A stretch of DNA of 64,000 nucleotides from a bacterium (GTDB lineage Bacteria; UBA8248), in contig OZ244799.1 in NCBI GenBank assembly GCA_965219955.1, positions 2,752,001-2,816,000 of the forward strand, given 5' to 3'. A model generated the notes under the pieces. It was not told the DNA's origin and searched no databases. It saw only the letters and a list, made by a program, of their open reading frames with translations. Position 1 is the stretch's first letter. The number at the start of each line of letters is the position of its first letter. Made by a program: the position numbers and the translations under genes. Of this stretch, positions 13,334 to 34,854 are shown one piece after another.

Positions 13334-16300
13334 ATGAACGCCGTCGCCAGAAAATACAATCCGGGGTTTCTTTCCGACGAGGAGATCGTGGCATCGTTCT
13401 GCGTTCGGACGAGCGAGTTCGAATCGATCGTCGAGATGCTGCGTGAATGCACCGAAAGTTCAAACCCGCACCAGCTCGTGATCGGCCCGCGCGGTAGCGG
13501 AAAAACCAGTCTGCTCCTTCGCGTCGCGGCCGAAATACGGCGCGATGCCGCGTTGGCGTCGAGGTTCTTCCCGATCGTCTTCGCCGAGGAGAGTTATGAG
13601 GTTTCCACCGCCGGGGAGTTCTGGCTGGAATGCCTCTCCCGCCTGGTCGTCCAAGCTCCGCGCAGGGAGGGCGGTCCAGATCTGCATCGTGCCCATGATG
13701 AGCTGAGTAAAGTTTCCGACGACTGGACGCTTGGGGAGCGCTGCCTCGGCGCGCTGCTCGATTTTTCGGATCGCGAGGGCAAGCGGCTCGTGCTGCTCGT
13801 GGAGAACCTGAACGCGATGTTCCGGGACATGACGGACCCGGACGCGGGATGGCGGCTTCGAAAAGTCCTTCAGAACGAGCCTCGGATTGTCCTGCTCGCT
13901 AGCGCGACGAGCAGGTTCGAGCAAATCGACGATCCCGAGCAGGCCCTGTACGACCTATTCCGAACAACCTCGCTTCGCCCTCTGGAAACGGAGGAATGCG
14001 CTGTTTTGTGGAAAACCGTCTCCGGACGGGAGCCGCGGAGGGAGACGATCCGGTCCTTGCGTATCCTCACGGGCGGCAACCCCAGGTTGTTCGTGATCGC
14101 GGCCCGTTTCGGAGCCGGCCTGTCCTTTCGCTTACTGATGGCGGATCTGCTCGACCTTGTCGATGACCACACCGAGTATTTCAGGAGCCATCTCGAATCG
14201 CTGCCGCCGCAGGAAAGGCGAGTCTATCTGGCGCTCGCCGATCTGTGGAAGCCGGCGACTACGAAGGAGATCGCGGACCGGGCCCGGCTCGATACGAACA
14301 GGTGCAGCGCGCAACTCGCCCGCCTCGACGAACGGGGCATCGTGGAGGTCGCGGGAGGCACTGCACGGCGCAAGCAGTATTATCTAACCGAGCGCATGTA
14401 CAACATCTACTATCTGCTGCGTCGCCCCCGAGGGCCGGACCGTCTGGTCGATTCGCTAATCCGTTTCATGGAATCGTTCTACTCACCGCGTGAATTGCGC
14501 GACATCGGGGTCGGAATCGCCCGCGAAGCAAAGAACCTCGATGGGGAGATGCGAGTGTTGCACGAGACCGCATTCGCAAATCTGCTGGCGTTGCCGGCGC
14601 TGGCCGAGCATCGGATGGAACTGCTTGAAATGTTTCCCATGGATGTATCGGGAATTTCTTCCCAAGGCCCGGCGTTTCCAGACGGAACGAAACCGGGGTG
14701 GAGCGGCGCGGAAACGTCTCCCCTGAACAAGGTTCCGGTTCACTCTGGTTCGGACGGGTCCCCGGAGGCTATCGCTCAAAAACTCCTCGAAAAAGGCGCC
14801 GCGCTAAGCGGGCAAAACCGATCGGAGGAGGCCCTCGAGGTCTTCGACGAAGTGCTCAGCCGGTACGGGGCGAGCAAGAAGCCTGCCCTTATCGATTCGA
14901 CTGCCAAAGCCCTCCTCAGAAAGACGGAAGCATTCTGGATGTTGAAACGTTTCGAATATGCGGTTGAGGCTTGCGAAGAGGTCGTGCGTCGATACGGGTC
15001 GGTCGAGGCGCCCGCTCTCCGTGAAACGGTCGCGTTGGCCATGTCCAACAAGGGGATCGCGCTTCGTGAACTGAACCGGCCGGAAGAAGCGCTGGCCGCC
15101 CACGCCGAGGTCGTGCGCCGGTACGGGGCGAGCGAAAACCCGGACGTTCTCGTGACGGTCGCTAAGTCGCTTTGTGAGAGAGGACTCATGCTGGGCAGGA
15201 TGTCCCGGTTTCAGGAAGCGCTCGCGGTGAGTGACGAAATGAAACGTCGATTTGGAGAACACAAGGCAACGAACATCGTCATACATGTCGCCAAGAACCT
15301 CTGCGACAAGGGGACGATACTGAACAACCTGAATCGTCCGGAAGAAGCGCTGGCGGTATATGACGAAGTAGTGCGCCGATATGGGGCGATCGACGATCCG
15401 ACTCTGCATGAGATAATCGCGATAGCCCTCCTCAACAAGGGTGCAACGCTCGGCGACCGGGATCGACCCAAGGACGCTCTCGCCACCTTTGAGGAGGTGA
15501 TGCGCCGCTTCGGGACGAGCAAGGAACCGGCCATTGTCGCCTCGGTCGCGTTGGCCATGTCCAACATGGGGTTCTCTCTGAGCGTATTGGAGCGAACAGA
15601 GGAAGCCATGGCGACGTATGACGAGATTGTGCGCCGATATGAGACGAGCGATCAATCGAACGTTCTCGAGGTGGTCGGAAAAGCGCTTCTCAACAAGGGG
15701 AAGGTGCTCGACACTTCAAACCGCCCGAAGGAAGCATTGGCGGTCTTCGACGAAATTCTTGCTCGCTTCGGAGCGGATGTGGCGCCCGGCCTTCGCGAAA
15801 CGGTCGCGACGGCTCTGTGCAACAAGGGCATCGCGCTCGGCAATTCCGGCAGACACGAAGAAGCAATAGTGATCTATGACGAGGCGGTTCGACGTTTCGG
15901 AGCCTCTGTGGAACTCGTGCTTGTCGAGATGGTCACGAAATCCCTCCTCAACAAGGGCTACGCGCTCGGCGCGTTGAATCGGCCGGAAGAGGCGCTGGCG
16001 TCTTATGATGAAGCGATACGTCATCCCGAAGAGATTGTGAAACCATCCATTCTTGCGCTGGTTGCGCATGCTCTCGTCAAGAAGGGTCTCACGCTTGTCG
16101 GCCTGACGAGACTTGAGGAGGCCCTGTCGAGTTATGACGAGGCGATACGTCGATTTGGAACGAATGGCGATTCTTCCGTATTTGGGCTGGTCGCGCAGTC
16201 TTTTCTCAACAAGGGCGTTGCTTTAGCCTCCCTGAGCCGTTTTGAGGAGGCGCTCGAAGCCTGTGACGAAGTGGTGCGCCGTTATGGAGGAAGCGAGGCG

Positions 16301-18049
16301 AACAGCCTTCGCGAGACGGTCGCGAAAGCCCTCGTCAACAAAGGACATATTCTTCTCGCGTCGACTCGACCGAAGGAGGCCCTGTACGTCTGTGACGAAG
16401 TGGCGCGGCGTTTCGGGGAAAGCGACGCGCCGGTTCTGGTTCACATGGCGGTGGACGCCTTACATCTCAAAGGCGACGCTCTCTTGGGGTTGAATCGGCC
16501 GAACGAAGCGCTCACCGCTTTCGATGAGTCGTTGCGCCGCTCTGAAGGAGCCGAGGAAACAGCCGTTCCAGGTCTCGTGGCGAATGCTCTTCTTGGCAGA
16601 GGGCTCGCCTACGACAGGTTAAACCGGCCCGACGAAGCGCTGGCGGCTTTCGAGGAAGTCGTGCGCCGGTTCGGAGAAAGTGAGACCCCGCTCGTTGGCG
16701 CTGCGGTCACTGTGGCGCTGACGGTGAAAGTACCCCTGCTCGACAGCGCCGACCGGCACCGGGATGCTCTGGACGCGCACGAAGAGCTGGTGCGGCGTGT
16801 GGGTGAGGAAGCGCCCGAGTATCATGAGTTGATTGAACGCTCCCTAATCGGGAAAGCGGATTTCGAGCTGGTCTGCGGAAGGCATGAATCGGCGATCGAA
16901 GCGGCAGAGACGGCGCTTGGGAAATGTCTTCCCGCATCGGTGGAAAACCGGTTGCGGGCTCACTTCATCCGCGCGAAGGCGGCCCTCGCTGGCGGCGATG
17001 CACCCGGATGCGAGCGGGACATCGAGACGATCCTCAAGGAGCTTCCGGACCTTGGGAGTATTCCAAAGGAGCACCTTCATGCATTGATGGAGTTCGGCAT
17101 CCGACTCGGACCGGAGCGAATGCGGGAGCTTATCGAGGTTTCCCCTTCGGCGGATCTCCTTTTGCCGCTCACGACCGCGCTGGCGCAGGAAACGGGAGAG
17201 CGGCCCCGGGTGGCCCGGGAAGTGGAGGAAGTCGCCCGAGATATCCGAAAGGAACTACAAGCACTGGGGAAAAACGCTGGCGATCGAAACCGATATCCGG
17301 ATGATGACGAACACATAAGGACACAGCTGCGAACCAGCGGGATAATCATCAGGGACAAGAAAAATCGGGTGCTGCCGATAAGAAAGGACCCGGTTCGGTT
17401 GGCGGTGGTGGGCAAAAAAGGTGAAAAATCGAATTCCTGGAAAATCTGGATGGAAAAAGATGGTGAAATATATTTTTCAATCCGGGACAACAATCCTGGA
17501 TTCAAAGTGAGTTTACATAAATCCGGAAAGCAGCACATTAAAATGGGAAGTAAGTATTGGGGACAATGGTTCGAACCTGATATCTATGCAGGACCGATGA
17601 TTGCGACTTCGGCCAAATTGGTTTTCCCGGCCTGGGGAATGAGAGAAGCTGAAAGAATGAGCGAAGAAGACAAGGATATCTGGGAGGGTAACGAGATAGA
17701 AATAGAGGCGCCCGAAGAAGGGAGACTGATTACGCTCAAAGCGTTCATCAGAGTGGAGGGCCAGAGGCTGAGGCAAGTAGACGGAAAAAGTGAAACATTG
17801 GCGATATGGCGGCGTGAGGACGGAAAGGAAGCGCATTTGATCGTCTGCGAAGAAGCCGAAAGAAATATGAAAGATGTCGTGAAAAGGGTATTGGAAAACA
17901 AGGCGTTTCTCACGAATATCAAGGAAAATATGGGAGAGGATGCTTTGGATGAGGAACGGGCATTTACAGTAGCGATGGGAGGCCCGGCAGAAGAAGGGGG
18001 GAATTACGTGCTCACGGTTTCGGCGAAATTCAAGGCCGAAGAAGAATAG
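13334..18049 (+). CDS. ATPase-wHTH-TPR protein with an extra C-terminal domain
   Basis: Walker A GPRGSGKTS, Walker B-like LLVENL, TGGNPR, HTH segment, then about 15 ~46-aa TPR-like units (NKG..L..LNRPEEALA.YDEVVRR.G). Confidence 0.85.
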   Translation: MNAVARKYNPGFLSDEEIVASFCVRTSEFESIVEMLRECTESSNPHQLVIGPRGSGKTSLLLRVAAEIRRDAALASRFFPIVFAEESYEVSTAGEFWLECLSRLVVQAPRREGGPDLHRAHDELSKVSDDWTLGERCLGALLDFSDREGKRLVLLVENLNAMFRDMTDPDAGWRLRKVLQNEPRIVLLASATSRFEQIDDPEQALYDLFRTTSLRPLETEECAVLWKTVSGREPRRETIRSLRILTGGNPRLFVIAARFGAGLSFRLLMADLLDLVDDHTEYFRSHLESLPPQERRVYLALADLWKPATTKEIADRARLDTNRCSAQLARLDERGIVEVAGGTARRKQYYLTERMYNIYYLLRRPRGPDRLVDSLIRFMESFYSPRELRDIGVGIAREAKNLDGEMRVLHETAFANLLALPALAEHRMELLEMFPMDVSGISSQGPAFPDGTKPGWSGAETSPLNKVPVHSGSDGSPEAIAQKLLEKGAALSGQNRSEEALEVFDEVLSRYGASKKPALIDSTAKALLRKTEAFWMLKRFEYAVEACEEVVRRYGSVEAPALRETVALAMSNKGIALRELNRPEEALAAHAEVVRRYGASENPDVLVTVAKSLCERGLMLGRMSRFQEALAVSDEMKRRFGEHKATNIVIHVAKNLCDKGTILNNLNRPEEALAVYDEVVRRYGAIDDPTLHEIIAIALLNKGATLGDRDRPKDALATFEEVMRRFGTSKEPAIVASVALAMSNMGFSLSVLERTEEAMATYDEIVRRYETSDQSNVLEVVGKALLNKGKVLDTSNRPKEALAVFDEILARFGADVAPGLRETVATALCNKGIALGNSGRHEEAIVIYDEAVRRFGASVELVLVEMVTKSLLNKGYALGALNRPEEALASYDEAIRHPEEIVKPSILALVAHALVKKGLTLVGLTRLEEALSSYDEAIRRFGTNGDSSVFGLVAQSFLNKGVALASLSRFEEALEACDEVVRRYGGSEANSLRETVAKALVNKGHILLASTRPKEALYVCDEVARRFGESDAPVLVHMAVDALHLKGDALLGLNRPNEALTAFDESLRRSEGAEETAVPGLVANALLGRGLAYDRLNRPDEALAAFEEVVRRFGESETPLVGAAVTVALTVKVPLLDSADRHRDALDAHEELVRRVGEEAPEYHELIERSLIGKADFELVCGRHESAIEAAETALGKCLPASVENRLRAHFIRAKAALAGGDAPGCERDIETILKELPDLGSIPKEHLHALMEFGIRLGPERMRELIEVSPSADLLLPLTTALAQETGERPRVAREVEEVARDIRKELQALGKNAGDRNRYPDDDEHIRTQLRTSGIIIRDKKNRVLPIRKDPVRLAVVGKKGEKSNSWKIWMEKDGEIYFSIRDNNPGFKVSLHKSGKQHIKMGSKYWGQWFEPDIYAGPMIATSAKLVFPAWGMREAERMSEEDKDIWEGNEIEIEAPEEGRLITLKAFIRVEGQRLRQVDGKSETLAIWRREDGKEAHLIVCEEAERNMKDVVKRVLENKAFLTNIKENMGEDALDEERAFTVAMGGPAEEGGNYVLTVSAKFKAEEE
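14770..16850 (+). repeat. Tandem TPR-like coding repeats (~138 bp unit)
   Basis: Periodic CTCAACAAGGG / GAAGCGCTGGCG / GTGCGCCG motifs in the DNA, matching the protein periodicity. Confidence 0.8.
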
Positions 18050-18467
18050 AAGGTACTTTGATAAGGTGGTCGCACTCTCGATATGACTAGCGGCAACCCT
18101 CGGTTGCGTACGGGACGCTACGCCCGTCCCGTTCTCGTGGCCCTTCATGGAGGTGTTTGGGCTTGCGATCTAGAAGATTGCGCATCGGTGTAGCGCATCG
18201 CTAGGCTGCTTAATATGGACTTCGAGGATTTGGCGGATATCTTCGCAGTGCACGACATCCGATGCGCAATCATACTGCGATGCGCCATGTCCCGACTCCA
18301 AGGCGCCGTACTGGTAGATACCAACGACATACTGAAAGCCCACCAGACAAGATCGGGCCGGCCTCGCGTCGAGTGGTATTCGGGATGAACACTGCTTCTG
18401 TCTCGATCTTATTGGCGGTGCAGATCGTCCATGCGTTCGTGATCCGCGCGTCTGAGTACCAAGCCTG

Positions 18468-18763
18468 GACGAAGCGCCGCCCGGCATCATCAAGGCGATC
18501 GAGACCTGCTTCACGCGCTCGGAGCGACGGCGGCCTACCAGATCCTTTCGCGCACCATCGCCCGGGAACTGGCCGAGGGAGTCTCTAGGGACTACGAGTC
18601 TGAACTGCCCGATACCGTGTCGTGCTTCCGCGGCGACTTCGAAGCCTGCATCTGGCCGACATGATCGCCGACGTGAGGTTCACCGATGGGGTGGACGTAA
18701 AAGAAACGGGTAGGAGGGCTGCTGGATTCAGGACGGCCATATACCAGATTTTACAGTAACTCC
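18468..18763 (+). pseudogene. IS256-family transposase remnant with right end
   Basis: Fragments PGIIKAIETCFTRSER, AAYQILSRTIARELAEG...CFRGDFEACI and LADMIADVRFTDG lie in shifting frames, followed by an end-like sequence. Confidence 0.6.
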
Positions 18764-18905
18764 CAACCTCAATCTACATTGGCAAAGAAATGTGGTAGCA
18801 GGTATGGTCTGAATCAAGGATTTCATGAGCCCGCCCCAGAAGCTATTCGAAAAACTATGGCCTGTTTTCGGATTAACTTCTTTCTGAATCGGTGTTGGGT
18901 ATAGT

Positions 18906-21752
18906 ATGAATAAACAACGCAATCGCGAAGAAGTGGTTAACACGCAACTTGCGTTATTGATCTCAGAACTCGGCGTCACAGCGGACGCTGAAACGATTCA
19001 AGTTCATGGTAAGCACCGTCCCGATGTCTTGTTCCAACTTCGCGGCTTGCGAATTGTCATTGAAGGTAAATTCCAAGATACGCCGAACGCCGAACAAGTC
19101 GTTCTGGACGATGCTCGAAAACGAGTTTGCGCGGGCATTGCGCATATTGCGGCCGCGACTGTTTATCCTGATCAATTACGAACAACCCCAACTACCAAGA
19201 TAATTGATACCTTGACAGATGCGCGACTTCGTTATCGGCTCGTTACTGAAACTTTCGAGAGTGAAAATTGGTTCGAAGGAAATCCCGCATCACTGATGGA
19301 GGCCCTCCGCAGAGCACAAGAGTCACTTACACAAAACGACATAGTTGAAAAAACAGCCAAAGCGCTTTCGATTCACCTTGAAAGCATCTCGAAGCTCTGG
19401 ATTGGTCAACCTGGCTCCTGCGACCGCCTGTCGAGATTGTTAGGAACTCCCATCCCGATAAATGAAAAGCCGAAAGCAACATCCGAAAGGCGTGAAACTA
19501 CTGCAAAGGTGTCGGCTCTCGTGCTGGCGAACGCTTTCATATTCCAAGAGCAGTTGGCATTAAATGATGAGCGCGTAGATACACTTCGGAAATTAGCGAA
19601 GAATGACGACATTATTGAAGCTACATCGGAACATTGGCGCTGGATTTGGGAAAACATAAACTACACTCCCATCTTCCAGCTTGGGGAACGTATACTTGAT
19701 GAACTACCAGCATTTGCAGGCACTACCAGGATTGTTCAATCTCTCCTCGACGCAGCACAAAAAATCTGCACCGAACAAGCTGCATTGCGTCATGACCTGA
19801 TGGGACGAATTTATCACTGGTTGCTCCACGACGCAAAATATCTTGGCACGTACTATACATCTGTCCCGGCGGCGACTCTGTTGTTGAAAGTTGCTCTGGA
19901 TCTCAAGTGGCCTCATGACTTCGGTAGTGCTCGGGAACTTGCGGACTTCAAAGCCGCAGATCTCGCATGTGGTACTGGAACTCTACTTATGGCCGCCGCA
20001 CAAGCCCTCACCGACAATTTTATTAAAACTCGCGCAGGGGACGACCGAAGCATCGATACGAAAGACTTGTCTGTACTTCATAGTACACTGATGCAAAATG
20101 TCGTCCACGGATATGACATACTGCCGTCTGCGGTACACCTGACAGCATCGACCCTCGCTCTGCTCGCCCCAGAGGTCGCGTTTCGGCAAATGAACCTGTT
20201 CGTTATGCCTGTTGGTATGGATCACGGGAACGCGCGACTAGGTAGCCTAGATTTTCTTTCCGGCAGTGAGATTAAAACACAATTTACTCTGGACAACACT
20301 CACTTAGACACTGTTAGAACAGGGGCAGCAGAATCCGCATTTACTAATGCCCAAATTCCTAATCTTGACCTTTGCGTCATGAATCCACCCTTCGTCAGTA
20401 GCCGTTACGGAAATCGGCTTTTCGGCTCACTGCCAGAGGATAGACCCAAACTCCAGAAAGCACTCTCGAAAGAGGCCAAGAAAATCGGTATCCACACGAC
20501 CGCTGGACTTGGCGCTTTATTCGTTCCGTTGGCAGACAAACACACGAAACCAGGTGGCCGTATTGCGTTCGTTCTGCCAATAGCTCTCGCAACCGGAGAA
20601 GCGTGGGGTCCTGTTCGGAAGTTTATAGTCGAACGATATCATCTCGAAGTCGTCATCACGAGCCACGATCCGTTACGCACCAATTTCTCGGAAAACACTG
20701 AATTATCTGAACTTTTATTCATGGCCCGTAAGCTGAAGCGTGGCGAAAAGGCTGGTTCCACCTACTATGTCAAATTGCGTCGAAATCCCGCCACTATTCA
20801 CGAAGCCCTTGACCTTGCAGATCGAATTTCGACTGGAATCAAGAAGATAAGCGATCAGAATAAACCTGTAACTATTCGCTCTGCGGCAAGAGTTTTGGGG
20901 GAGATCGCAAACCTTCCTAGACCGCATAACAAAGACAATTGGACGAGCGCTATATTCTATCAACATTATCTATTCCAAGTTCATTGGGCACTGGACAAGA
21001 ATTCACTTTTGTCAATCCCCGGCGAATTATCGCAACAACCCATTCCACTTTGTCGTCTCGATGCTCTAGGCGAACTTGGCTATGACGTTCGAGATATTTT
21101 TGACGCCTTTGATGTTGACCGGTCTGCGTCACAGTGGACTCCTTATCCTGCATTTTGGAACCATGACGCCAAACGGGTGTTTCAAATCACCCAAGCGCCA
21201 AATGCTTTCCTAATATCTCGAACGAAGCCAATCGAAGGGCGCAAGCTCAAAAGCGCCACGGCGGTTTGGGCAAAGGCGGGCAAGATTCTATTGGTGTCAA
21301 GACTTTGGCCAATAACGCAAAAGGTGCTTGCTACTGGTTTCAACACAAAAGTGCTTGGCAATACTTGGTGGGCCTTCGATACCGCAAATCTTTCCATCAA
21401 ACAGAGCCAAGCACTGTTACTTTGGATGAACTCAACGCTTGGCTTGCTATTCTACTATGGGAGAAGAGCAATAACCCGAAGTGCTTGGATGCAGATGAAG
21501 AAACCCGCATGGGAATCAATGTTGGTGCTAGACGTTCGGAATTTGAACACAGAACAACTCGATATGCTGTCCACGACTTATAAAATCGTGTCGAAAGAAA
21601 CCTTGCAACCACTCGCACAACTCGACTGCGATCCGGTTCGAATTCAAATTGATGAGGCTCTCTGCAAAACACTCGAATTGCCATCACTCAATCCGATCCG
21701 TGAACTTTTGGTTCGAGAACCTGGCCTTACCGGGTCAGATTCAGACGCCTGA
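18906..21752 (+). CDS. Fused restriction endonuclease-adenine methyltransferase (type IIG-like)
   Basis: N-terminal RPDV...IEGK (PD-(D/E)xK), LGTYYTS, motif I DLACGTG, motif IV NPPF, C-terminal TRD-like region. Confidence 0.85.
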   Translation: MNKQRNREEVVNTQLALLISELGVTADAETIQVHGKHRPDVLFQLRGLRIVIEGKFQDTPNAEQVVLDDARKRVCAGIAHIAAATVYPDQLRTTPTTKIIDTLTDARLRYRLVTETFESENWFEGNPASLMEALRRAQESLTQNDIVEKTAKALSIHLESISKLWIGQPGSCDRLSRLLGTPIPINEKPKATSERRETTAKVSALVLANAFIFQEQLALNDERVDTLRKLAKNDDIIEATSEHWRWIWENINYTPIFQLGERILDELPAFAGTTRIVQSLLDAAQKICTEQAALRHDLMGRIYHWLLHDAKYLGTYYTSVPAATLLLKVALDLKWPHDFGSARELADFKAADLACGTGTLLMAAAQALTDNFIKTRAGDDRSIDTKDLSVLHSTLMQNVVHGYDILPSAVHLTASTLALLAPEVAFRQMNLFVMPVGMDHGNARLGSLDFLSGSEIKTQFTLDNTHLDTVRTGAAESAFTNAQIPNLDLCVMNPPFVSSRYGNRLFGSLPEDRPKLQKALSKEAKKIGIHTTAGLGALFVPLADKHTKPGGRIAFVLPIALATGEAWGPVRKFIVERYHLEVVITSHDPLRTNFSENTELSELLFMARKLKRGEKAGSTYYVKLRRNPATIHEALDLADRISTGIKKISDQNKPVTIRSAARVLGEIANLPRPHNKDNWTSAIFYQHYLFQVHWALDKNSLLSIPGELSQQPIPLCRLDALGELGYDVRDIFDAFDVDRSASQWTPYPAFWNHDAKRVFQITQAPNAFLISRTKPIEGRKLKSATAVWAKAGKILLVSRLWPITQKVLATGFNTKVLGNTWWAFDTANLSIKQSQALLLWMNSTLGLLFYYGRRAITRSAWMQMKKPAWESMLVLDVRNLNTEQLDMLSTTYKIVSKETLQPLAQLDCDPVRIQIDEALCKTLELPSLNPIRELLVREPGLTGSDSDA

Positions 21753-22107: not shown

Positions 22108-22491
22108 TCATTCGGAAGTACTTTCCGCGAGTGAATTCTGCGACTCACGGGCGTCTTTCATGGTCCGGTCGAGTTCATTCTTGCGTCCTTCGCGCACCAA
22201 TTCATCCCGCTTCAGCGTGGAAAGAAGGTAAACCCCGCGATAGATCCGCTCTATCTGGGCTCCAATTTCAGGTGGAAACCCCGTAGAATTTGCGGTCAGC
22301 TTGCCCGTAGCGAAACTCAATGCGGCATGGCGAACGAGTTCGGCAGCCGTCATTCCGCGCTCCCTGGCCTCCTTTTCAATGCAAGTCCACTCGGAATCGG
22401 AGAACCGGATCGAGCGTGGCGAACGCGATTCACCGTGTTTATCATCGGAATTCTCGCTGGAATCGCCGGCGATGGAATGGTTTTCGGTCAT
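22108..22491 (-). CDS. Ribbon-helix-helix protein, probable relaxosome accessory factor
   Basis: RSIRFSDSEW..IEKEARERGMTAAELVRHAAL. Adjacent to the nic site; homolog at 37259-37645. Confidence 0.75.
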   Translation of the reverse strand: MTENHSIAGDSSENSDDKHGESRSPRSIRFSDSEWTCIEKEARERGMTAAELVRHAALSFATGKLTANSTGFPPEIGAQIERIYRGVYLLSTLKRDELVREGRKNELDRTMKDARESQNSLAESTSE

Positions 22492-22720
22492 GTTTTGCCT
22501 CCAATGGTTCGATTTTTTCAGCCGGGAAATCGCCGGTATCGTTGCATTTACGGATCAAATCCGGTCGCTCTGGGCACAGATTCATTTGTAAGCTCATAGC
22601 ACACATATTTAGGAAATACTATGTCCAGCGTATGCCATAAGCATACGCCCCTTGTGAAGCACAAGGAATTCAATGGGATACGGGCGTGTTACGTCGTAAT
22701 ACGCTCTCCCAGCGAAAGCG

Positions 22721-22806
22721 GGGCGGTATTTGAGGGCGTTTGAGCAAGGAACGACATGCCTAGCGCACGATTGACCTGCACCCCGCAGCCCGCTGCGTGG
22801 GGTGTG
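22721..22806 (+). other. oriT of the inner element; predicted nic between 22805 and 22806
   Basis: CGCAGC-CC-GCTGCG inverted repeat running into TGCGTGGGGTGT, the F-plasmid nic-proximal 12-mer. The ~85-bp non-coding block is conserved at 36942-37027. Confidence 0.8.
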
Positions 22807-23084
22807 AAATCCGAAGCGCCGAAGGGCGGCTAACGGCGGATTCCTGGGAACGAGCGACAGGGAAATTTTCGCCGGAGAGGATGGCTAGCGGGAGCCGTCG
22901 CGGCGATTGAGCGGACAGAGCGAGGGGTAAGGAGGTGTGAGGGCGCTGGAACTTGCGCCTGGATTCACAAGCGGCGGGAGCACGGGGCGCTGCATCTTGC
23001 GCTTTACATCACAAGCAGACGAACGACACGGGAAGCAACGAGCCGCGTCGCCGGGGCGACGACGCGACTCGTCGAGCGTTCACG

Positions 23085-24017
23085 TCACGCTACTTTTTGA
23101 ACGGGGATGCCGAGGCTTCGGGCTTTGTCGACGAGGTTGTCCGTGATGCCCGAACCGGGGAACGCGACCACGCCCTTGGGGAGGAGGGAGAGCAGCTCGT
23201 CGTTGCGCCGGAAAGGAGCCGCACGTCCATGCGCATCCCAATCCGGCTTGCAGACGATCTGGTGGACGCCGTTGCGCTCGGCCCAGCCGGCTGCAATCTT
23301 CTCGGCGCCGGGGCCGCCGCCGTGGACGAGGACGACGTCGGCGTACTTGGCCTTGACCTTGTTGAGATGCGCGATGATTTTGCCCGCGTCGCCGGCCTCC
23401 TTTCCGCCCGCGACGGCGACGAGTGTTCCCTGCGGCAAGTGCGCGGTGTTCTCGCGGTCCTTTTTCGCGCGCTGGAAGTCTCGCGCCTCGATTACCGCAG
23501 AGGTCAGCTTGCCGGTCTGGGAGACGTGCGATCCTCTCCTGGGCCGCCATACCTCGCCGGTCTCGACGCGGTAGGCCTCTGCGGCGGCGTCACGGAGTTG
23601 TTCAAAAGCATCACGCCGAGCATTAAAGTTTTGCGCCCGGTCGGTCGCGAGTTCGAGTTCGCGGGACCTGATTTCGGAGCCGTCCTGCTCGCGCTGCATT
23701 TCGCGGATGCCGGGGATGAGCTTGTCGGCGGCGCGGTCGAGGCGCTGTGTCTGGGCGTCGAGGGTGTTGACGAAACCCCACAGGAGGTTTCTTCGCTCGT
23801 CGGCCAGCTGCGTGCCGTCGGGTGCTGCCTCGGCGAGCAGGTGGAATGCCTTGAGGACGGCGGCGGTGGATTCCGCCTCGCCCCAGACGGGCCGGTTGTC
23901 GAACTCGTCCGGTCCGGGGGTCGCGCCGAAGAGTGCTGCCTGTTCGCAGACCATGGCGGTGAAGGATTCGTTCTGCGCTTCGTGCTCTGCGTACTCGTGA
24001 ATTGCGGTGGCAGTCAT
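23085..24017 (-). CDS. DUF2493 (YspA-related SLOG) domain protein
   Basis: VAVAGG, VLVHGG.PGAE, PDW..HGRAAPFRRNDELL and AFPGSGIT motifs after a helical N-terminal domain. Confidence 0.8.
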   Translation of the reverse strand: MTATAIHEYAEHEAQNESFTAMVCEQAALFGATPGPDEFDNRPVWGEAESTAAVLKAFHLLAEAAPDGTQLADERRNLLWGFVNTLDAQTQRLDRAADKLIPGIREMQREQDGSEIRSRELELATDRAQNFNARRDAFEQLRDAAAEAYRVETGEVWRPRRGSHVSQTGKLTSAVIEARDFQRAKKDRENTAHLPQGTLVAVAGGKEAGDAGKIIAHLNKVKAKYADVVLVHGGGPGAEKIAAGWAERNGVHQIVCKPDWDAHGRAAPFRRNDELLSLLPKGVVAFPGSGITDNLVDKARSLGIPVQKVA

Positions 24018-24038
24018 TGTTCACTCCTTTGGTTGTCC

Positions 24039-24410
24039 TCAGGCGAGGGGATGGTTGAATTCGGGAAGAGCGTAGCCACGCTCGTTGCGCCCCACTTCTT
24101 TGGGCATCTCGTCGAGATACCTGGCGGCCCACTCGGCGGCGCGCGCGAGTACGTCGCCGTGGCACGGGAGGGGATGGCAGTGGCAGCCGAGTTCGCAGCC
24201 CTGGAGGTCGGCGAGTTCGTAGAGGTTGACCTCCTCCTGCCGGATTTTTCTCCAGAGCCATCGCCGGTATTTTTCAATCACCTCGGCGCGCTCGCCGTCC
24301 TGGCCGACCCGGAAGGGATTTCCCCACTTCGTCGCTCGGTCGATCCTTACCAGCAATCCACTGCCGATATCCGCAACGTAGTCGTTCAGGTTCACCACGG
24401 TGGTTTCCAT
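24039..24410 (-). CDS. DUF4326 domain protein
   Basis: IDR.TKWGNPF, VIEKYR.WL and LGCHCHPLPCHGDVL motifs. Confidence 0.85.
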   Translation of the reverse strand: METTVVNLNDYVADIGSGLLVRIDRATKWGNPFRVGQDGERAEVIEKYRRWLWRKIRQEEVNLYELADLQGCELGCHCHPLPCHGDVLARAAEWAARYLDEMPKEVGRNERGYALPEFNHPLA

Positions 24411-24446
24411 GCCTTTCTCCTTTCCAGAGAGTTAACGGATGCGCTT

Positions 24447-24670
24447 CTTAGCGTCCCATTTTCAGCACGTAAGGGCATCGGGTTTTCGATGCCCGTAGGC
24501 GAGCGAATCAAGGGCTTGTCATTTTCCGGGGGGTACCCGAAAAACACGGTTCATAGAGCGGTGCTCCTGTTTTTCGCCGCTCGACGTTTTTTGGGGGGCA
24601 CCGGCAAATGATGGCCGCTTGCGGCCACCCTTTATTCGCTCGGCGTTCGTGCTAAAATGGGAGCGCTAAG
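24447..24670 (+). promoter_or_regulatory. Frpo-like ssDNA promoter hairpin (inner)
   Basis: Arms 24447-24514 and 24628-24670 are complementary once an internal hairpin (24473-24494) is extruded. One arm carries TTTATT-N16-TAAAAT with extended TG. Confidence 0.6.
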
Positions 24671-24965
24671 AGAGAGAGGGTAGTATCGCCACCGGGACAC
24701 AAGAGCCTCTGGTGTTTCACGATGAAGGCGAAGCTCATCGGGAAACAGTCTCTCATGCTGCGGAAAGGGTCATTTCGGGCCGTTTTTCCGGCCCGAAATT
24801 CCCGCAGCGGGGGGTAGATCGAGCCACTATCTTAAATTTGGAGTGATTGCAGGCGCAGACCGATCTTCCGTGAACACGGTTCAACGTTCACGGAACCGGA
24901 GGATTTACCGGGTGTTCCCGGTAGAGGAGAGAGCCGACAGGGTGGACCTTCTCTGGATAGCGGGC
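24671..24965. ncRNA. Candidate structured RNA or ssDNA element (multi-hairpin)
   Basis: Non-coding, highly conserved with 34855-35150, with several strong hairpins. Identity unknown. Confidence 0.35.
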
Positions 24966-25001
24966 AAAAGAAAAGGGGTCGACGCGCGAGGCGCCGACCC
25001 C
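24966..25001 (-). terminator. Intrinsic terminator after ssb
   Basis: GGGGTCG...CGACCCC stem followed by TTTTCTTTT on the minus strand. Confidence 0.75.
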
Positions 25002-25009
25002 TTGTGAGC

Positions 25010-25444
25010 CTAGAACGGAATTTCGCTGTCTGCTCCATCGACTGTCGCCGCCACAGCCGCCGTCTCGGCGTGCGCGCCGTTTCCGTTCCCGTTCGCCTTC
25101 TCGAGGAACTGGATTCTCCCGCCGGGCGCGATGAGGATCTCGGTCGAGAACCGGTCCGAGTCCTCATCATCCTTCTTCCAGCGGCGGGTCTGCAATTTGC
25201 CGGCCACGTAGACCAGGCGGCCCTTCTTCGCGTGGCGTTCGAGCATGTCGACGAGGCCGGGCTGGAAGGTGACGATCCGGTGCCACTCGGTCTTGTCCAC
25301 CCGGTCGCCGGATTGCCGGTCCACGTAGCCCTCATCGGTGGCGATGGAAAGATTCGCGACGCGCCCGCCGCTCGTGAGATGGTTGATGGTGACGTCGGCG
25401 CCGAGACGCCCGATCAGTTCCGCCCTGTTGAGTCCGAATGCCAT
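25010..25444 (-). CDS. ssb: Single-stranded DNA-binding protein (intact)
   Basis: Complete OB fold and acidic DSEIPF tail; AAGGAG RBS. Confidence 0.95.
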   Translation of the reverse strand: MAFGLNRAELIGRLGADVTINHLTSGGRVANLSIATDEGYVDRQSGDRVDKTEWHRIVTFQPGLVDMLERHAKKGRLVYVAGKLQTRRWKKDDEDSDRFSTEILIAPGGRIQFLEKANGNGNGAHAETAAVAATVDGADSEIPF

Positions 25445-25520
25445 TGTAATACTCCTTCATGGTGTGAGTGAGAAAAAGTGACGGGAGAGAGAGCCTTTCT
25501 CTCCACCCCCCCGGTTCGCC

Positions 25521-25646
25521 CTACACGCTGCAAAACTCCTCCTCGCCCCCCGTCTCTTCGCGTATCTTGCGGATCGTGTACGCGTCGAGCCCGAGTTCTG
25601 CGAGCAGTTCGTCCGTGGTGGGAACGTCGACGTCATTCTCGTACAT
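25521..25646 (-). CDS. 41-aa acidic peptide upstream of ssb
   Basis: MYENDVDVPTTDELLAELGLDAYTIRKIREETGGEEEFCSV; AGGAGG RBS; homolog of 2554-2685. Confidence 0.75.
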   Translation of the reverse strand: MYENDVDVPTTDELLAELGLDAYTIRKIREETGGEEEFCSV

Positions 25647-25852
25647 GGCCAGGCCTCCTGTCGGGGTTGTCGCCGGCACGGGAGGGAGACCGTCTCCCTC
25701 TCCCCTCCGGGCGTATCGCCCGGCTCCCCGCTTCCCTCTACCTCTCCCGTGGAGGTCCTCATCCGGTGAGGAACGTTCGCCGACACTCCCGGGACTTGCC
25801 TTTGCCGTGGATTCGTGTCAGACAGCGCGCGGACATGAGGAAGGGAGGAGGT

Positions 25853-26308
25853 ATGGAACGACTCCGGTTCCGGATTCCGGCGCTGTTGTGGCTGCCGGCG
25901 GGGATTGTCACCGAAGAGGTTCTGCGCACGGGGTCCGCGCAGGGGATGATGACACTGCTCGCCGCCCCGGAGTTGCTGTCCGCAGCAGCGTGCGGCGTCC
26001 CGCTCGCGCTCGCCTGCAGGCGTCTTTCCCGCTCGGGGTATCCAGGCCCCGCCCTGGTGGCGTGGTTGCTGCTCGGCGCCGCCGCAATGGTGAGCTTCGC
26101 CGGTGCGTTCCCCGCAGGCGTTCAGGCGGTACTGGCCTCCCTTCCGGTATGGGCCGTGGTATGGCGTCTCGAGCGGCGGCCGAGCCGGCTGGAATTCGCT
26201 CCCTCGTCCGAATGGCGCGGGCGCGGAGGTTCGCTCGCCCGGTTCATGCTGCGTGCGTTGAGCGCTCCCGAAGCCCCCCGCCGATACCGCCTCCGGCGGA
26301 CCTCCTGA
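25853..26308 (+). CDS. Small membrane protein
   Basis: GGAGG RBS, hydrophobic; diverged homolog of 2008-2367. Confidence 0.6.
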   Translation: MERLRFRIPALLWLPAGIVTEEVLRTGSAQGMMTLLAAPELLSAAACGVPLALACRRLSRSGYPGPALVAWLLLGAAAMVSFAGAFPAGVQAVLASLPVWAVVWRLERRPSRLEFAPSSEWRGRGGSLARFMLRALSAPEAPRRYRLRRTS

Positions 26309-26408
26309 CGGCGCCGGGCCGGCTGCGGAGCAGGGCGGCGGCGTACCCTCCCCCCGGCCCGTTCCCCCCGCCGGCGGCCGGCCGGCTACACGTGTGACGG
26401 CAGCCCGG

Positions 26409-27218
26409 CTAACGACCTGTGAGCGCCGCCATCCAGGAGCTCTCCTCGACGACCTCCACCTCATCGCGGGAGAGTTTTTCGAAGGCGAGGCACATCGCCA
26501 CCTCCTCCCATGAGTCCAGTGGCCCGTGCTCGATGCCCGTTTTGAGTTCGACTATGGTGAAGCGCGGCGGAAGGACCGGCATCCCCTTGTGCTCGCCTGA
26601 TGAGTGGTATGAGCGCACTGCGCACGGGGCGCATCTGGCGGCTCCATCGCTTGGGGATTGGCAGTCGACACACACGCCGCGTGCCCGCCTGCCGCGATAG
26701 CGCGTCCTGCTCGCGGCGTTCTTTTGCGGACGGCGCTTCACGTCCCTTGCGGCGCACGAAGCGCACGTCGAAGCCCCATCGCCGGTTTCCGCCCCGCATC
26801 TTCCGCAAAGTCCCCTGGCGCGCCTTTTCTCGTAAAGGGCCCGCTCCGCCGCGCGCCTCGCCTCCCGGCAGGCCTCACAGACGGCGCCGCCCTCTGCGGG
26901 TTTTCGTTTTCCGCAGCGCGGGCACAAGCCGGCCTCGAGGCGCTCGCGCCTTCGCTTCCCCGCCCTCTCGCGCGCCATGCGGCGGCGGCTTTCGGGATTG
27001 CGGCCGCCGTATTGCGCTCCCTCGAGTTTTCCCTTGAGGTATCGGGCGCGCTCGGCGGCCCGGCTTCTTTCCAGGCAGGCCTCGCAAAGACTTCGCCCGG
27101 ACGCAGGGCGTCTGCGTCCGCATTTGACGCATTTGCCCAGCGCGCGGCGCTCGGCCGTCCTGCGCCTGTGGCGTTCGCGCTCGTATTCGCGTCGTCTTTC
27201 AATATCCCTGTGGGGCAT
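26409..27218 (-). CDS. Poly-zinc-finger protein (4 x C4)
   Basis: All 16 finger cysteines conserved with 1105-1917; shared SSGEHKG and DSWEEVAMCLAFEKLSR. Confidence 0.8.
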   Translation of the reverse strand: MPHRDIERRREYERERHRRRTAERRALGKCVKCGRRRPASGRSLCEACLERSRAAERARYLKGKLEGAQYGGRNPESRRRMARERAGKRRRERLEAGLCPRCGKRKPAEGGAVCEACREARRAAERALYEKRRARGLCGRCGAETGDGASTCASCAARDVKRRPQKNAASRTRYRGRRARGVCVDCQSPSDGAARCAPCAVRSYHSSGEHKGMPVLPPRFTIVELKTGIEHGPLDSWEEVAMCLAFEKLSRDEVEVVEESSWMAALTGR

Positions 27219-27294
27219 GGTTTTCTCCGGGTGTCGGTGAAGTCGTTCGGACGGCGAGACGTCTTGCGGGCGGAAGTCCTCCCGGGGGAGTTCC

Positions 27295-27591
27295 TCACCG
27301 GCACAGCATGCGGGCCCAGACGAGGTGCTCGCCCCACAGCTGCAGCCCGCTTCCGGGGACCTTGAGCCCCGTGCAGACGATGAGTTCGTCGCACGCGGGC
27401 CGCATCTCGCGCACCGCCCGGCGCGAGGCCGTCACGCGCTTTCCCTTGCGTTCGCCCGCCTCTGCCGGTGGGAGGGGCCTGATGTCGCCGTCGGCGGACC
27501 TGTAGCGCTTCACTTCGTAGCGCTCATCCGCCAGGCCTTGAGCGAGGAGATGGGTGAGGAAGGTGTCCGCTTCTCTTCGGGGTCTACGCAT
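27295..27591 (-). CDS. Conserved hypothetical backbone protein (98 aa)
   Basis: AAGGAGG RBS; homolog of 775-1089. Confidence 0.72.
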   Translation of the reverse strand: MRRPRREADTFLTHLLAQGLADERYEVKRYRSADGDIRPLPPAEAGERKGKRVTASRRAVREMRPACDELIVCTGLKVPGSGLQLWGEHLVWARMLCR

Positions 27592-28029
27592 CGCGCGCCT
27601 CCTTTACGGGGTGGATGGGGGCGGCGGGAACGAGCCTCTCGCGGACTCTCCCCCCGCCGCCCCCTCCCGGCCAGGCTCCGCCTCTTTCCGGCGCGAAGCG
27701 AGTTTTTCAAGGGGCGTGCGCGATGAACGACCGCCCGGTCCCCGGGGCGTTCGCCGCCATGTGAGGCGCGCTGCCATACTGATAACCATCTCCGGGACTT
27801 GCGCCGTTATCACCCCGCCAGCGAAAGATAACGACAAGGTCGTCAGTGATACTTGAGCTGTAGAAAACGATGACTTTCCAGAGAAACAAGGCACGCTATA
27901 AGCTCATCTGGAATATGCGAAGCCTGTTGCCCGATACCGGGGTTCTCCTGTAAATTCGCCCGTTGTTCGTGAGGTATTCAAGAATCGGATATGCCCCGTG
28001 CATCGACTCAGCGTAGTGCCTGAATCGAA

Positions 28030-31000
28030 TTGATGCGCCCGAAAGAAATAATGGTAATGAGCAAAAAGGCGGATACCGGACCTCAAGGAAGTGGCGAGAA
28101 TGAGACGCACTCCTTGAAGGTCTCGAAGAAGGCATTACGTTTGAGGGTTGAACGAAGAGGTTTTGCGTCGCTCTTGTACGCGATACTGCGGCCTAAAGAC
28201 GCCAGGGCAGCTTTCGTGAATGAGCACTCGCTGAGCCTGATGCATGGGTCCGGATACACGGAAATTCCTATCGAGGACATCACGTCGGTCAAGGTCGAAA
28301 CCGGACAGTACTGGAGCCGCATACGCTTCCATCATACCGCAGGATCCGCAACTGTGTCGGGGCTGGAGCGAGATGCCATCAGGGCATTCGCCGAAGTGCT
28401 TGAGACCGCAAGGATATCGTGTTGGCGCCGGACACTGGCAACGCAGGTCATGCAGCTTCAATCGATACTTGAATACCAGGAACATCTCGCGAATCCGCCG
28501 GAGCACATGGCGAGCGTTTTCCTTGAGTTGAGACGCGATGCGGAAAAAGCGGTGAACCAATTCGCGGCTCGTTGGCCGAAGTCGTTGGCGAATGCCCCGG
28601 AAACCCGGCTACTGAAGAAGGTTCAAGACTTTCTGGAAAGCCCGGAGCTTCGGCGGGCGGAAGAAATCGCCAGAGTACGCTGGTGGCGTCGGAAGTTGGC
28701 GACGGAGATCGCAACGCTCCATTCGGTACTTGAGCGCCTGAAGCAACTCGCAAATCCCTCTGAATACCAAGCGAGCAGTATATTCCGTGATCTGAGACAA
28801 GATGCTGAGAAGGCGGTGGCTCAATTTGTGGAGCGTTGGCCCAAGTCATTGCCAAACGCCCCGGATTTCCTGGTAGTGAAGTCGATAAAGGAATTTCTGG
28901 AAGACCCGGAGCGTCTGCGCGCAGAAGTGAACAACACCTTCGTCGAAATGGAATTGAAGAGGTCACAAGGATTCTTCGACCGGATTGAGACCCGACCGCT
29001 TACCGAAGAGCAACGCCGGGCGGTCGTCGTGGATGAGGACCGAAACCTGGTGGTCGCCGCGGCCGGCAGCGGCAAGACCTCGGTGATCGTCGCCAAGGCC
29101 GGATGGCTTCTCCACAGGAAGTACCTGAATCCGTCGGAATTGCTGCTCCTGGCGTTTGCGAAAGACGCCCAGCAAGAGATGGAAGCAAGGGTCCGCAAGA
29201 GACTCGGTGACGAGGCGGCGCAAGGGATGACCGTCAGAACTTTCCACGGTCTGGGACTGGCGATCATTGGTGAGGCCGAAGGCAGGCGGCCGGCTTTGAC
29301 CAAGGCGTCCCAGGACGAAAACGCGCTGTTTAATCTGCTCAAGGACATCGTCAACGAACTGACAGAAGAGCGTAAATTCTTTGCAGACTTACTGAAGTGG
29401 TTCCAGTCGCAGTTCGCACTCTACCGGAGCGAGCATGAATTCAGTTGTTGGGGTGAGTATTGGGAGTATATCCGGAGGCACGAAATAATATCGCTCAAAG
29501 GCGAGAGGGTCCGGAGCTACGAGGAATGCGAGATTGCCAACTTCCTCTATCTAAACGGCGTGCCCTACGAATACGAACGCATTTATCAGCATGAGACCGC
29601 CACGCCCGAGAAGGGTCCATACAAACCGGATTTCTATCTGAACGAAGCCGGAATCTACATTGAGCATTTCGGCCTCGACGCTTCGGGAAACACTGCACCG
29701 CACGTCCCACGGGACAAGTATCTCGAAGAAATGGAATGGAAGCGCGCGATTCACGGAAAACACGGCACTATCCTCATCGAGACATTCAGCCATGAGCATA
29801 CCGCTGGCAAGCTGACCGAGAATCTGGCCGAGAAACTCCGCGCTCATGGCGTAACTCTGTCTCCCATACCCCGTGAAGAGTTCTTCACTGTGCTGAGCCG
29901 GGAGAAACGGATTGACCCTTTCATTCGCCTGTTGGCAACCTTTCTCAAGCACTTCAAGGGCGCGCGGCTTACTTTTCCTGAAGTAGCTCGACGGGCCGCA
30001 GGTCACAGGAACTCTTTGCGGGCTCAAGTCTTCCTCGCCTTGTTCCAGCCGGTCTTTGAGCGATATGAGGAAACACTCTCCGGCTCGGGACAGATCGATT
30101 TTCACGACATGATCTCCAGGGCGACGGACCATGTCGAGGCCGGACGCTATCAAAGCCCATTTGCCTGTGTCCTGGTCGACGAGTTTCAGGACATTTCGCC
30201 GGGCCGGGCGAGGTTGCTCAAGGCGCTCTTGGAGAAATCGCCTGGAGCCCGGCTGTTCGCCGTCGGTGACGACTGGCAGGCGATATACCGCTTCGCCGGC
30301 TCTGACATCGGAATCATGCGGGAATTCAAAGAGCATTTTGGCGACTACGAACGTATCGACCTGGGAACAACTTTTCGATGTGACGAGCGCATCGTCTCAG
30401 TCTCTAACAAATTCATCGTGCGCAACCCTGCGCAGATTCCCAAGACGGTTGCTTCGCCGCATCGGGCGGACGGCCCTTGTGTCCATGTCGGTCTTCCTGG
30501 TGAGCAACGGCTTCCCCTGTTAAACGAGACGCTCGACAAGATTGCCGAAGAGGCCAGTGCTTTCGGGGAAAAATCGAGCGTGCTGTTGCTCGGCCGCTAC
30601 AATCACACGCGACCGAAAAACTTTTCCGCACTCAACAGGATGTATCCGAATCTCTTGATTTCTTTCAAGACTGTACACCGATCCAAGGGCCTTGAGGCGG
30701 ATTACGTCGTGGCGCTCGACCTGTGTGCCGGAAAGCATGGTTTTCCGTCCGAGATCGACGACGAACCACTTTTCGATCTGGTTCTCTCGACGCCCGAAGG
30801 GTATCAGAATGCGGAGGAGCGGCGCCTGTTCTACGTCGCCCTCACCCGTGCGAGACGCCGTGTCTTCCTGCTTGCCGAGGGTGGTCCGATTTCTCCCTTC
30901 ATTACGGAACTGATTGAGGATGGATACGGCGTCACCGTCTTTGGCCGAGCGCCGGAGGACGACGTTTCCTGTCCTGTATGCATAAAGGGACATCTCGTGC

Positions 31001-31275
31001 TGCGCGAAAGGAAAAGAAACGGCGGCAATTTCTATGGTTGTTCGAACTTTCCTTATTGCGAGCATGCGCAGAGACCGTGCCCGCTTTGCGGCAAAGGGTT
31101 GCCGATTAAGGTAGGCAAAGCATTTCGCTGCCGAGATTGCGGCCAATCCATCGAGGCTTGCCCTGAATGCGAAGGCTGGTTACAGATGAAAAACGGTCAA
31201 TATGGTTCTTTTTGGGGATGTTCGAATTATCCTTCGTGCACATTCACCCGCGACCATAGGGAAAATAGTCAATGA
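28030..31275 (+). CDS. UvrD/HelD (helicase IV)-like SF1 helicase with inserted PD-(D/E)xK nuclease and C-terminal zinc ribbons
   Basis: AAAGSGKTS, LVDEFQD, VGDDWQAIY, HRSKGLE, EERRLFYVALTRAR; insert YKPDFYL...IEHFG; FYGCSNFPYC and FWGCSNYPSC ribbons. Start uncertain. Confidence 0.88.
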   Translation: MMRPKEIMVMSKKADTGPQGSGENETHSLKVSKKALRLRVERRGFASLLYAILRPKDARAAFVNEHSLSLMHGSGYTEIPIEDITSVKVETGQYWSRIRFHHTAGSATVSGLERDAIRAFAEVLETARISCWRRTLATQVMQLQSILEYQEHLANPPEHMASVFLELRRDAEKAVNQFAARWPKSLANAPETRLLKKVQDFLESPELRRAEEIARVRWWRRKLATEIATLHSVLERLKQLANPSEYQASSIFRDLRQDAEKAVAQFVERWPKSLPNAPDFLVVKSIKEFLEDPERLRAEVNNTFVEMELKRSQGFFDRIETRPLTEEQRRAVVVDEDRNLVVAAAGSGKTSVIVAKAGWLLHRKYLNPSELLLLAFAKDAQQEMEARVRKRLGDEAAQGMTVRTFHGLGLAIIGEAEGRRPALTKASQDENALFNLLKDIVNELTEERKFFADLLKWFQSQFALYRSEHEFSCWGEYWEYIRRHEIISLKGERVRSYEECEIANFLYLNGVPYEYERIYQHETATPEKGPYKPDFYLNEAGIYIEHFGLDASGNTAPHVPRDKYLEEMEWKRAIHGKHGTILIETFSHEHTAGKLTENLAEKLRAHGVTLSPIPREEFFTVLSREKRIDPFIRLLATFLKHFKGARLTFPEVARRAAGHRNSLRAQVFLALFQPVFERYEETLSGSGQIDFHDMISRATDHVEAGRYQSPFACVLVDEFQDISPGRARLLKALLEKSPGARLFAVGDDWQAIYRFAGSDIGIMREFKEHFGDYERIDLGTTFRCDERIVSVSNKFIVRNPAQIPKTVASPHRADGPCVHVGLPGEQRLPLLNETLDKIAEEASAFGEKSSVLLLGRYNHTRPKNFSALNRMYPNLLISFKTVHRSKGLEADYVVALDLCAGKHGFPSEIDDEPLFDLVLSTPEGYQNAEERRLFYVALTRARRRVFLLAEGGPISPFITELIEDGYGVTVFGRAPEDDVSCPVCIKGHLVLRERKRNGGNFYGCSNFPYCEHAQRPCPLCGKGLPIKVGKAFRCRDCGQSIEACPECEGWLQMKNGQYGSFWGCSNYPSCTFTRDHRENSQ

Positions 31276-34810: not shown

Positions 34811-34819
34811 GCGCTTCAT

Positions 34820-34853: not shown

Positions 34854-34854
34854 G

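Follow-up and report, generated by a model that had tools for sequence, protein, structure and literature searches.

Why would a mobile element that is inserted in an ssb gene carry a second, intact ssb of its own, and does it matter that this inner copy differs from the target at the bases where the element is joined? The question is raised by a 64,000-nucleotide stretch of bacterial DNA, referred to here as the window, in which an invading element of 31.6 kb (2975-34578) lies between 13-bp direct repeats within the ssb of a related, resident element. The intact inner ssb of the invader contains GTCGACATGCTCGAACGCCAC at 25232-25252 on the minus strand, where the codons GTC GAC ATG CTC GAA CGC CAC (25252-25232) encode VDMLERH, whereas the resident ssb, when rejoined from its two halves, encodes VDMFEKH. 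From this contrast, a first-pass annotation of the window had proposed that recoding of the core protects the element from integrating into itself, and that the intact ssb replaces the gene that the element disrupts. The features on which the following analysis draws are listed here.

2766-2978, plus strand: 5' part of the resident (outer) ssb, codons 1-71 (tblastn, 93% identity to residues 1-71 of the inner SSB)
2975-3167, plus strand: AT-rich P' arm with direct repeats GTGTTGA (3117-3123) and GTGTTGC (3129-3135)
3168-4403, plus strand: tyrosine integrase with an N-terminal arm-binding domain (Pfam Arm-DNA-bind_3, 6.4e-16; Phage_integrase, 2.3e-14)
4743-6170, minus strand: cargo, weak SIR2-like protein (Pfam SIR2_2, 1.3e-4, under the curated cut-off)
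7008-9143, plus strand: type IV coupling protein of the invader, TrwB/TraD type (Pfam TrwB_AAD_bind, 4.6e-139)
9140-11947, plus strand: TrwC-type relaxase-helicase of the invader (Pfam TrwC, 3.9e-85; AAA_30, 2.6e-48)
11987-21752, plus strand: cargo, two AAA/STAND-like ATPases and an N6-adenine methylase-like protein (Pfam)
22138-27732, minus strand: backbone module of the invader, with a NikA-like protein, a SLOG-domain protein, ssb and two unnamed open reading frames (self-blastn)
25010-25444, minus strand: ssb of the invader, intact, 144 aa (Pfam SSB, above the cut-off)
28030-31275, plus strand: cargo or backbone, UvrD-type helicase and topoisomerase zinc ribbons (Pfam)
34380-34565, plus strand: AT-rich P arm with repeats GTGTTGC (34470-34476) and GTGTTGA (34481-34487)
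34568-34810, plus strand: 3' part of the resident ssb, codon 67 to the stop (tblastn, 80% identity to residues 67-144 of the inner SSB)
52597-57680, minus strand: TrwC relaxase and coupling protein of the resident (90% DNA identity to those of the invader)

The invader and the resident were found to belong to the same family of elements. The backbone module of the invader (22138-27732) is collinear with resident DNA at 642-2966 plus 34580-37615, inverted and at 69-89% identity in a self-blastn comparison, and invader positions 6568-11863 match the relaxase and coupling-protein genes of the resident (52783-58047) at 90% identity. From this shared backbone and the 90% identical relaxase region, it was concluded that the invader is a relative of its host element, lying in the opposite orientation. 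The invader's integrase scored 54 bits for Phage_integrase (cut-off 27.1) and 58.7 bits for Arm-DNA-bind_3 (cut-off 27). The motifs GMRRGE, HGLRNAF and EGY, picked out of its translation by eye, are candidates for the Arg, His-x-x-Arg and Tyr of the catalytic site. An excisionase gene was not recognised in the invader.

Mating-pore families gave no match among the 24 open reading frames scanned in the invader and its flanks, and VirB4 (PF03135), the sole pore family searched genome-wide, had no match in the whole of the window's own genome (G000), which is 94% complete. Because PF03135 is absent, both elements are called mobilizable rather than self-transmissible, with room for a non-canonical pore. 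Having an integrase, a TrwC relaxase, a TrwB-type coupling protein and no pore genes that we could find, the invader is an integrative mobilizable element (IME). Assignment to the self-transmissible ICEs, which have complete type IV secretion genes, was rejected on the absence of PF03135 from G000. The cargo of the invader looks defence-like, and the second of its AAA/STAND-like ATPases is 1571 aa long with TPR repeats. A defence-like block was also noted in the resident (38603-49994), comprising an SNF2-type helicase with NOV_C, a YhcG/DUF1016 nuclease, a DUF1156 methylase-like protein and a DUF499 protein.

We then consider how the invader came to lie in ssb. The 13-bp repeat, ACATGTTTGAGAA, is found at 2962-2974 (attL) and 34566-34578 (attR), exactly where the ssb homology breaks, and the integrase starts 190 bp from attL. 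The left junction reads GTGGACATGTTTGAGAAACAT (2958-2978) and the right junction CACATGTTTGAGAAGCAC (34565-34583). At attL, the 5' frame of the resident ssb enters the element and meets a stop after two further codons. Both arms are unrelated to ssb, and their repeats are conserved in position: those of attL recur at offsets +138/+150 (+139/+151 in one) in six of six related attL sites, and the attR pair, 11 bp apart at about -104/-93, recurs with a variation of 1-2 bp in six of six related attR sites. The AT-rich arms with their conserved GTGTTG[AC] pairs point to a lambda-type attachment site and not to homologous recombination. An exchange or inversion between two related elements that bypassed the integrase was nonetheless weighed, as the two share about 11 kb of DNA, inverted and 87-90% identical. 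However, the junctions fall outside this shared homology and abut non-ssb, AT-rich arms with conserved repeats, and the identical junction recurs across genomes and resident copies. The junction anatomy thus contradicts an origin by homologous recombination, to which we assign a negligible likelihood, and site-specific integration into codons 66-70 of the resident ssb is as good as certain.

The position of the crossover could be narrowed further. A dyad, ATGTTT (2964-2969)-GAG-AAACAT (2973-2978), lies at attL, and AAACAT opens the element-side arm in most relatives of the integrase, even in those with very different targets. Most relatives share the core ATGTTCGAGAA, where the window has TTT instead. 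In genome G007, attL reads ATGCTT-GAGAA-ACAT and attR reads ATGTTC-GAGAA-GCAC, while one attR of G008 reads GAGTTG-GAGAA-GCAC; since these junctions differ left of GAGAA, the exchange takes place within or right beside GAGAA. The dyad and the differing junctions together lead us to predict a 7-bp overlap, T[T/C]GAGAA (here TTGAGAA, 2968-2974), along with half-sites for core binding.

Several further observations concern the junctions. A promoter-like site spans attL (2959-2988), with a -35 TGGACA from ssb and a -10 TATAAT from the element (11/12 positions), and a second promoter-like site, TTGCCA-17-TATAGT (3132-3160), coincides in part with the arm repeats immediately ahead of the integrase start. 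The hybrid site at attL was set aside as a functional feature for want of conservation among relatives. A role of the invader in driving expression of the 3' ssb fragment or of resident genes downstream was also discarded, as a promoter scan at attR returned no outward plus-strand promoter. When metagenome contigs were scanned with the attR pattern, one contig of 2.7 kb was recovered, which was uninformative. In a comparison of attL with the contigs of four public runs, one run spanned the attL-integrase junction (a 4.4-kb contig with no differences), and the remaining runs gave short related-ssb contigs that continue uninterrupted past 2966-2974, cannot be assigned to a locus and bear neither way on an empty site or excision.

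The contrast between the two ssb genes was examined next to this junction map. The target reading GTG GAC ATG TTT GAG AAG CAC is assembled from the left part of attL and the right part of attR and is absent as one piece; it is a fair reconstruction of the target. The stretch of the inner ssb that is equivalent to the core is ACATGCTCGAACG (25236-25248); it differs from the repeat at 5 of 13 bases, with the residue changes F68L and K70R, and this part of the first-pass annotation is confirmed in the sequence. The statement that the copies differ exactly at the core does not hold for the window's own pair, in which 76 of 441 aligned positions differ (a 6-nt indel included) and 13-nt windows with at least five differences are also found at nt 121-139 and 319-339, at a single further window (nt 240-252) and throughout the C-terminal tail; a concentration at the core stands out only once seven related elements are compared, as set out below. 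Over the 117 residues of the OB domain, the inner and resident proteins differ at eight.

The inner gene appears in good order. Its product scores 83.3 bits for PF00436, the OB fold is modelled by AF2 at a pLDDT of 87-95 over residues 11-110, and in 19 of the 25 copies aligned the C-terminal tail closes with IPF. The flagged stretch covers codons 64-72, which lie in the one alpha-helix of the OB fold (residues 62-71 in the AF2 model). Judged from dN/dS values of 0.08-0.23, the inner ssb is under purifying selection. Complementation, which the first-pass annotation had inferred, is probably unnecessary in G000: a housekeeping ssb lies at a different locus of this genome, which also has four more intact ssb paralogs, so the inner copy is redundant here and need not make good the loss of the split gene. 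It could do so once the composite has been transferred to a new host.

It may be asked whether the FEKH core was instead brought in by attP, which would turn the contrast with LERH into a product of the way the target was reconstructed. Indeed, no other ssb copy of G000 contains the exact TTT GAG 13-mer. Yet uninterrupted paralogs in related genomes read GAC ATG TTC/TTT GAG AAG CAC, the identical repeats at both junctions imply a core that is common to attB and attP, and in G007 attL and attR differ left of GAGAA, as expected were each side to keep its own flank. The unoccupied paralogs with the identical core refute an attP-derived FEKH as far as sequence can show, leaving it with hardly any probability, and the FEKH core is native to ssb.

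We sought to establish how often this nested arrangement recurs. The genome collection contained 385 relatives of the integrase, from which 79 loci were retained. At 11 of the 79, a piece of ssb that ends at codons 71-75 is found some 190 bp upstream of the integrase (about 1.1 kb in L025); these loci are spread over 10 genomes besides the window's own and include all eight whose integrase is 88-94% identical. In five loci, an ssb fragment adjoins the integrase elsewhere, and 61 loci had no ssb match. When the DNA upstream of these 61 was clustered, no common target emerged. Some integrases of 79-86% identity reside in non-ssb DNA, which indicates that specificity has switched among close relatives. 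The full layout (attL, integrase, opposite-strand inner ssb, attR) was found in G000, G001, G002, G003, G004 (twice) and G007, and attR with an inner ssb alone was found in one more case each in G004 and G009. In the relatives, the inner ssb lies 5-15 kb before attR. Matches to the ssb family ranged from 2 to 36 per genome (G000-G012), with 36 in G007, 18 in G008, 13-14 in each of G001, G003, G004, G005 and G011, and fewer in G006, G009 and G010; the seven genomes G001-G005, G007 and G008 had 7-36. These copy numbers imply very heavy loads of related relaxase-bearing elements.

A number of individual loci depart from this layout. In locus L025 (G005:C6), the integrase is separated from the attL core by about 1.1 kb of additional DNA, where relatives have 190 bp. 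The integrases of L031 and L034 (79-80% identical) adjoin GAGAAACAT junctions in non-ssb DNA, L034 having TGTTCGAGAAACAT, and these may be secondary sites or the shared core in another gene. The attL core reads TTT TAA AAA CAT in L023 (G010) and TTC AAG AAA CAT in L148/L024 (G004), and both elements look like decaying copies; the G004 attL at 229 kb has a mutated core, with a frameshifted coupling protein and a truncated relaxase. In G008:C1, attL (4344750-4344965, minus) and attR (4267466-4267669, plus) lie 77 kb apart in opposite orientation, as would be left by an inversion through the attachment site. A second, decayed integrase relative of 59-62% identity, with internal stop codons, was noted at G000:C1:1940344-1941022. 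In two genomes, a complete ssb is preceded, some 250 bp upstream and in the same orientation, by a partial copy comprising codons 1-44 (G006:C22, 70043-70174 with 69350-69793; G007:C3, 70321-70452 with 69640-70071).

Across the nested elements, nine inner ssb copies could be compared with the core of the target. We found that GAGAA (nt 205-209) is missing from all nine, and that four different sequences stand in its place: GAACG in the window's inner ssb (LERH, 1/9), GAGCG in those of G001, G002 and G009 (FERH, 3/9), GAAAA in that of G003 and in three G004 copies (FEKH, a synonymous change, 4/9) and ACCAA in that of G007 (LTKN, 1/9). As the elements are related, the nine cases represent perhaps four or five independent lineages. 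Among the other intact ssb paralogs of the same genomes, GAGAA is present in 29 of 50 (G000, 0/4; G001, 5/8; G002, 4/4; G003, 4/9; G004, 4/4; G007, 12/21), counts that exclude the partial copies L141, L219 and L220. Genome G005, with GAGAA in 9 of 10 copies, was left out of this pool because it holds no complete element, and junction remnants that have no partner junction or element genes were likewise excluded (G003 attR at 593 kb, G005 attL on C6 and G005 attR on C3). The linkage of the LERH allele to this integrase clade, which the first-pass annotation had put forward for testing, is contradicted by the alleles: LERH is found in one of the nine inner copies and also in L099, which belongs to a different element type.

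Under random assignment within genomes, the chance that all inner copies are mismatched is about 7e-4, or about 0.01 when the three G004 copies are treated as one event. This calculation uses nine intact copies in G001, and the per-genome probabilities were combined as an exact product, Fisher's method being uninformative where a genome has one or few possible outcomes. In G004, the copy L127 has a fully matching GAGAA and neighbours a decayed attL of the clade; it was scored as non-inner and may be inner, which would raise the G004 term from 0.029 to 0.114 and give a product of about 3e-3.

The main rival to selection is a neutral polymorphism between lineages, by which the inner lineage happens to carry other alleles of codons 68-70 and the integrase came to target an allele that is common in other elements. 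We consider this possible, if doubtful. Consistent with it, GAGAA is also lacking from 21 of the 50 non-inner paralogs and from all four other paralogs of G000, with no invader present; the difference clusters elsewhere in the window's own pair are equally dense; and in the ssb tree the inner allele of G000 groups with L168 and L099, which have the Arg codon in common with it. The joint mismatch of nine copies out of nine by way of four different sequences argues against neutrality, as does the same tree, in which the inner copies are scattered and not monophyletic (35 of its 56 inner branches are unsupported). The three G004 inner copies are mosaic and differ at many sites, their common rare states being confined to sites 70 and 207, and all three nevertheless retain G207A. 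In two G004 pairs of inner copy and target, 10 and 11 of 351 nt differ, and G207A is among these differences.

A comparison of local with gene-wide substitution bears on the same alternative. When the inner copy was set against its own target in the seven complete elements, four of 347 five-nt windows were mismatched in all seven pairs; they start at nt 204-207 and each overlaps GAGAA, so that at this window size the core is the sole region to differ throughout. With 7-nt windows, nt 68-78 are also mismatched in all seven pairs. Among non-inner copies, the variability of the core window ranks 113-131 of 345, and this average standing in the pool indicates that the core is not simply a hot spot, which again counts against a neutral origin.

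A further alternative is one of survivorship, in which matching inner copies do arise, are soon hit by siblings and are then scored as targets. The numerous element copies in these genomes, with the 7-36 ssb matches given above, and the existence of solo attL and attR remnants would suit such a process. Against this, the 29 matching paralogs among the 50 stay unoccupied, so integration is far from saturating, and no element of the clade with its own ssb split by a sibling was seen in the genomes searched. Such a process would in effect amount to selection against inner cores that match, and we rate it as improbable.

A sister clade of integrases qualifies the picture. These integrases (68% identical; L073/L077, G011) have an identical layout and target ssb codons 29-31 with the core GTCGCAA. 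In G011, the inner ssb core, GTCGCAAATCTATCC, is the same as that of the target in two of two inner copies; the flanks are identical too, and the element has an intact integrase. An element can thus carry a matching attB in inverted orientation without apparent harm, a point in favour of the neutral alternative, and self-avoidance is neither universal nor obligatory. The sister clade therefore lowers our confidence in selection for the clade at ssb codons 66-70. In G001, an element of the sister type (L225 with L099) has a one-base mismatch in its inner copy. The initial proposal of recoding against self-integration accordingly survives in part: the absence of GAGAA from 9/9 inner copies, against its presence in 29/50 others, speaks for it, and the matching sister clade removes any sense of obligation.

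It was also noted that the two G011 ssb copies hit by the codon-29 clade (L234 and L239, against L235, L237 and L240-L245) read GGC/GGT at codon 26, where all eight intact copies, inner included, read GGG; the base concerned lies 7 nt left of the core. Further integrase clades (61-68% identical) adjoin ssb elsewhere, at L074/L079 (G012), at L093 (G007) and in G005:C6 beside L025. One of these clades is placed near codon 17-20, its element lying in the reverse orientation, and others lie at the 5' end of ssb. At least three more integrase clades thus use different sites within this 435-bp gene, and ssb seems to offer several landing sites.

Lambda-type integrases require that the short overlap match between attP and attB. 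In the mechanism that we propose, the flagged stretch would be the equivalent, in the invader's ssb, of the attB core for the invader's own integrase. The inner ssb is inverted relative to attP and reads TCGAACG at the predicted overlap, and under the rule of overlap homology this mismatch should keep it from recombining with attP. Recombination between the two would give an inversion that destroys both attP and ssb. The mismatch may be kept by selection within the integrase lineage, a suggestion that rests on every inner core being mismatched, by at least four sequences of which some are synonymous, in a paralog pool that mostly matches. Selected self-avoidance at the crossover core is in our judgement the best reading of these sequence comparisons, with a probability of roughly 0.6. 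The term target immunity, used in the first-pass annotation, is the wrong one in its transposon sense. Target immunity of Tn7, Mu and Tn3 is brought about by element-encoded proteins acting over distance; the outcome is alike, in that self-insertion does not occur, but here we see the loss of a recombination sequence and not a protein-mediated immunity.

Several known systems resemble this one in part. Integrases of the lambda/P4 type likewise have arm-binding and catalytic domains, arm repeats on both sides and a short identical core, with the difference that the overlap position is here predicted from sequence. Streptococcal IMEs and ICEs, according to two papers, nest site-specifically in conserved genes or in oriT of ICEs, as with a Tn1806-like ICE in snf2 of ICESa2603-family elements (PMC5704250, PMC12942858). 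The window shares with those composites a site-specific recombinase that inserts into a conserved gene of a conjugative-type element, and such insertion was found to be recurrent here as well. Unlike them, the target is ssb, the hosts are uncultured and represented by MAG records only, and the invader belongs to the backbone family of its host element and carries a copy of the target gene that lacks the crossover sequence. Most IMEs, according to one review, avoid disrupting their target (PMC5704250). Elements that rebuild their target, at the 3' ends of tRNA genes or the 5' or 3' ends of protein genes, compensate for landing in a gene, as the invader may; in contrast to them, the ssb in the window is split mid-gene with a stop two codons in and no replacement end at the junction, and the complete ssb paralog lies about 9 kb inside the invader on the other strand.

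A full-text search of a literature library returned nothing relevant on integration into ssb, on integrase self-integration or target immunity, or on sponge-symbiont elements of this kind. The nesting of mobile elements is familiar, but to our knowledge rules for the targeting of a gene that the element also carries have not been described. New in this system are the ssb target, the relatedness of the invader to the element that hosts it, and the mismatch in the ssb that the invader itself carries.

These features have practical as well as biological meaning. Natural core variants that are graded from 0 through 1 and 2 to 3-5 mismatches occur beside an integrase with a defined attP, which makes the homology requirement testable, and the comparison supplies a sequence rule by which susceptible ssb copies may be told from refractory ones. 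The nested insertions would explain the build-up of composite islands in genomes crowded with related elements, and their recognition should aid the annotation of islands in metagenome-assembled genomes, where a split ssb is otherwise called a pseudogene. A broader reading, which we put forward tentatively though as a serious candidate, is that one lineage parasitises its siblings through ssb while its own ssb would be made refractory by as little as one synonymous base in the overlap. If this is true, ssb would be a battleground between elements, and target-site escape may drive part of its allelic variation.
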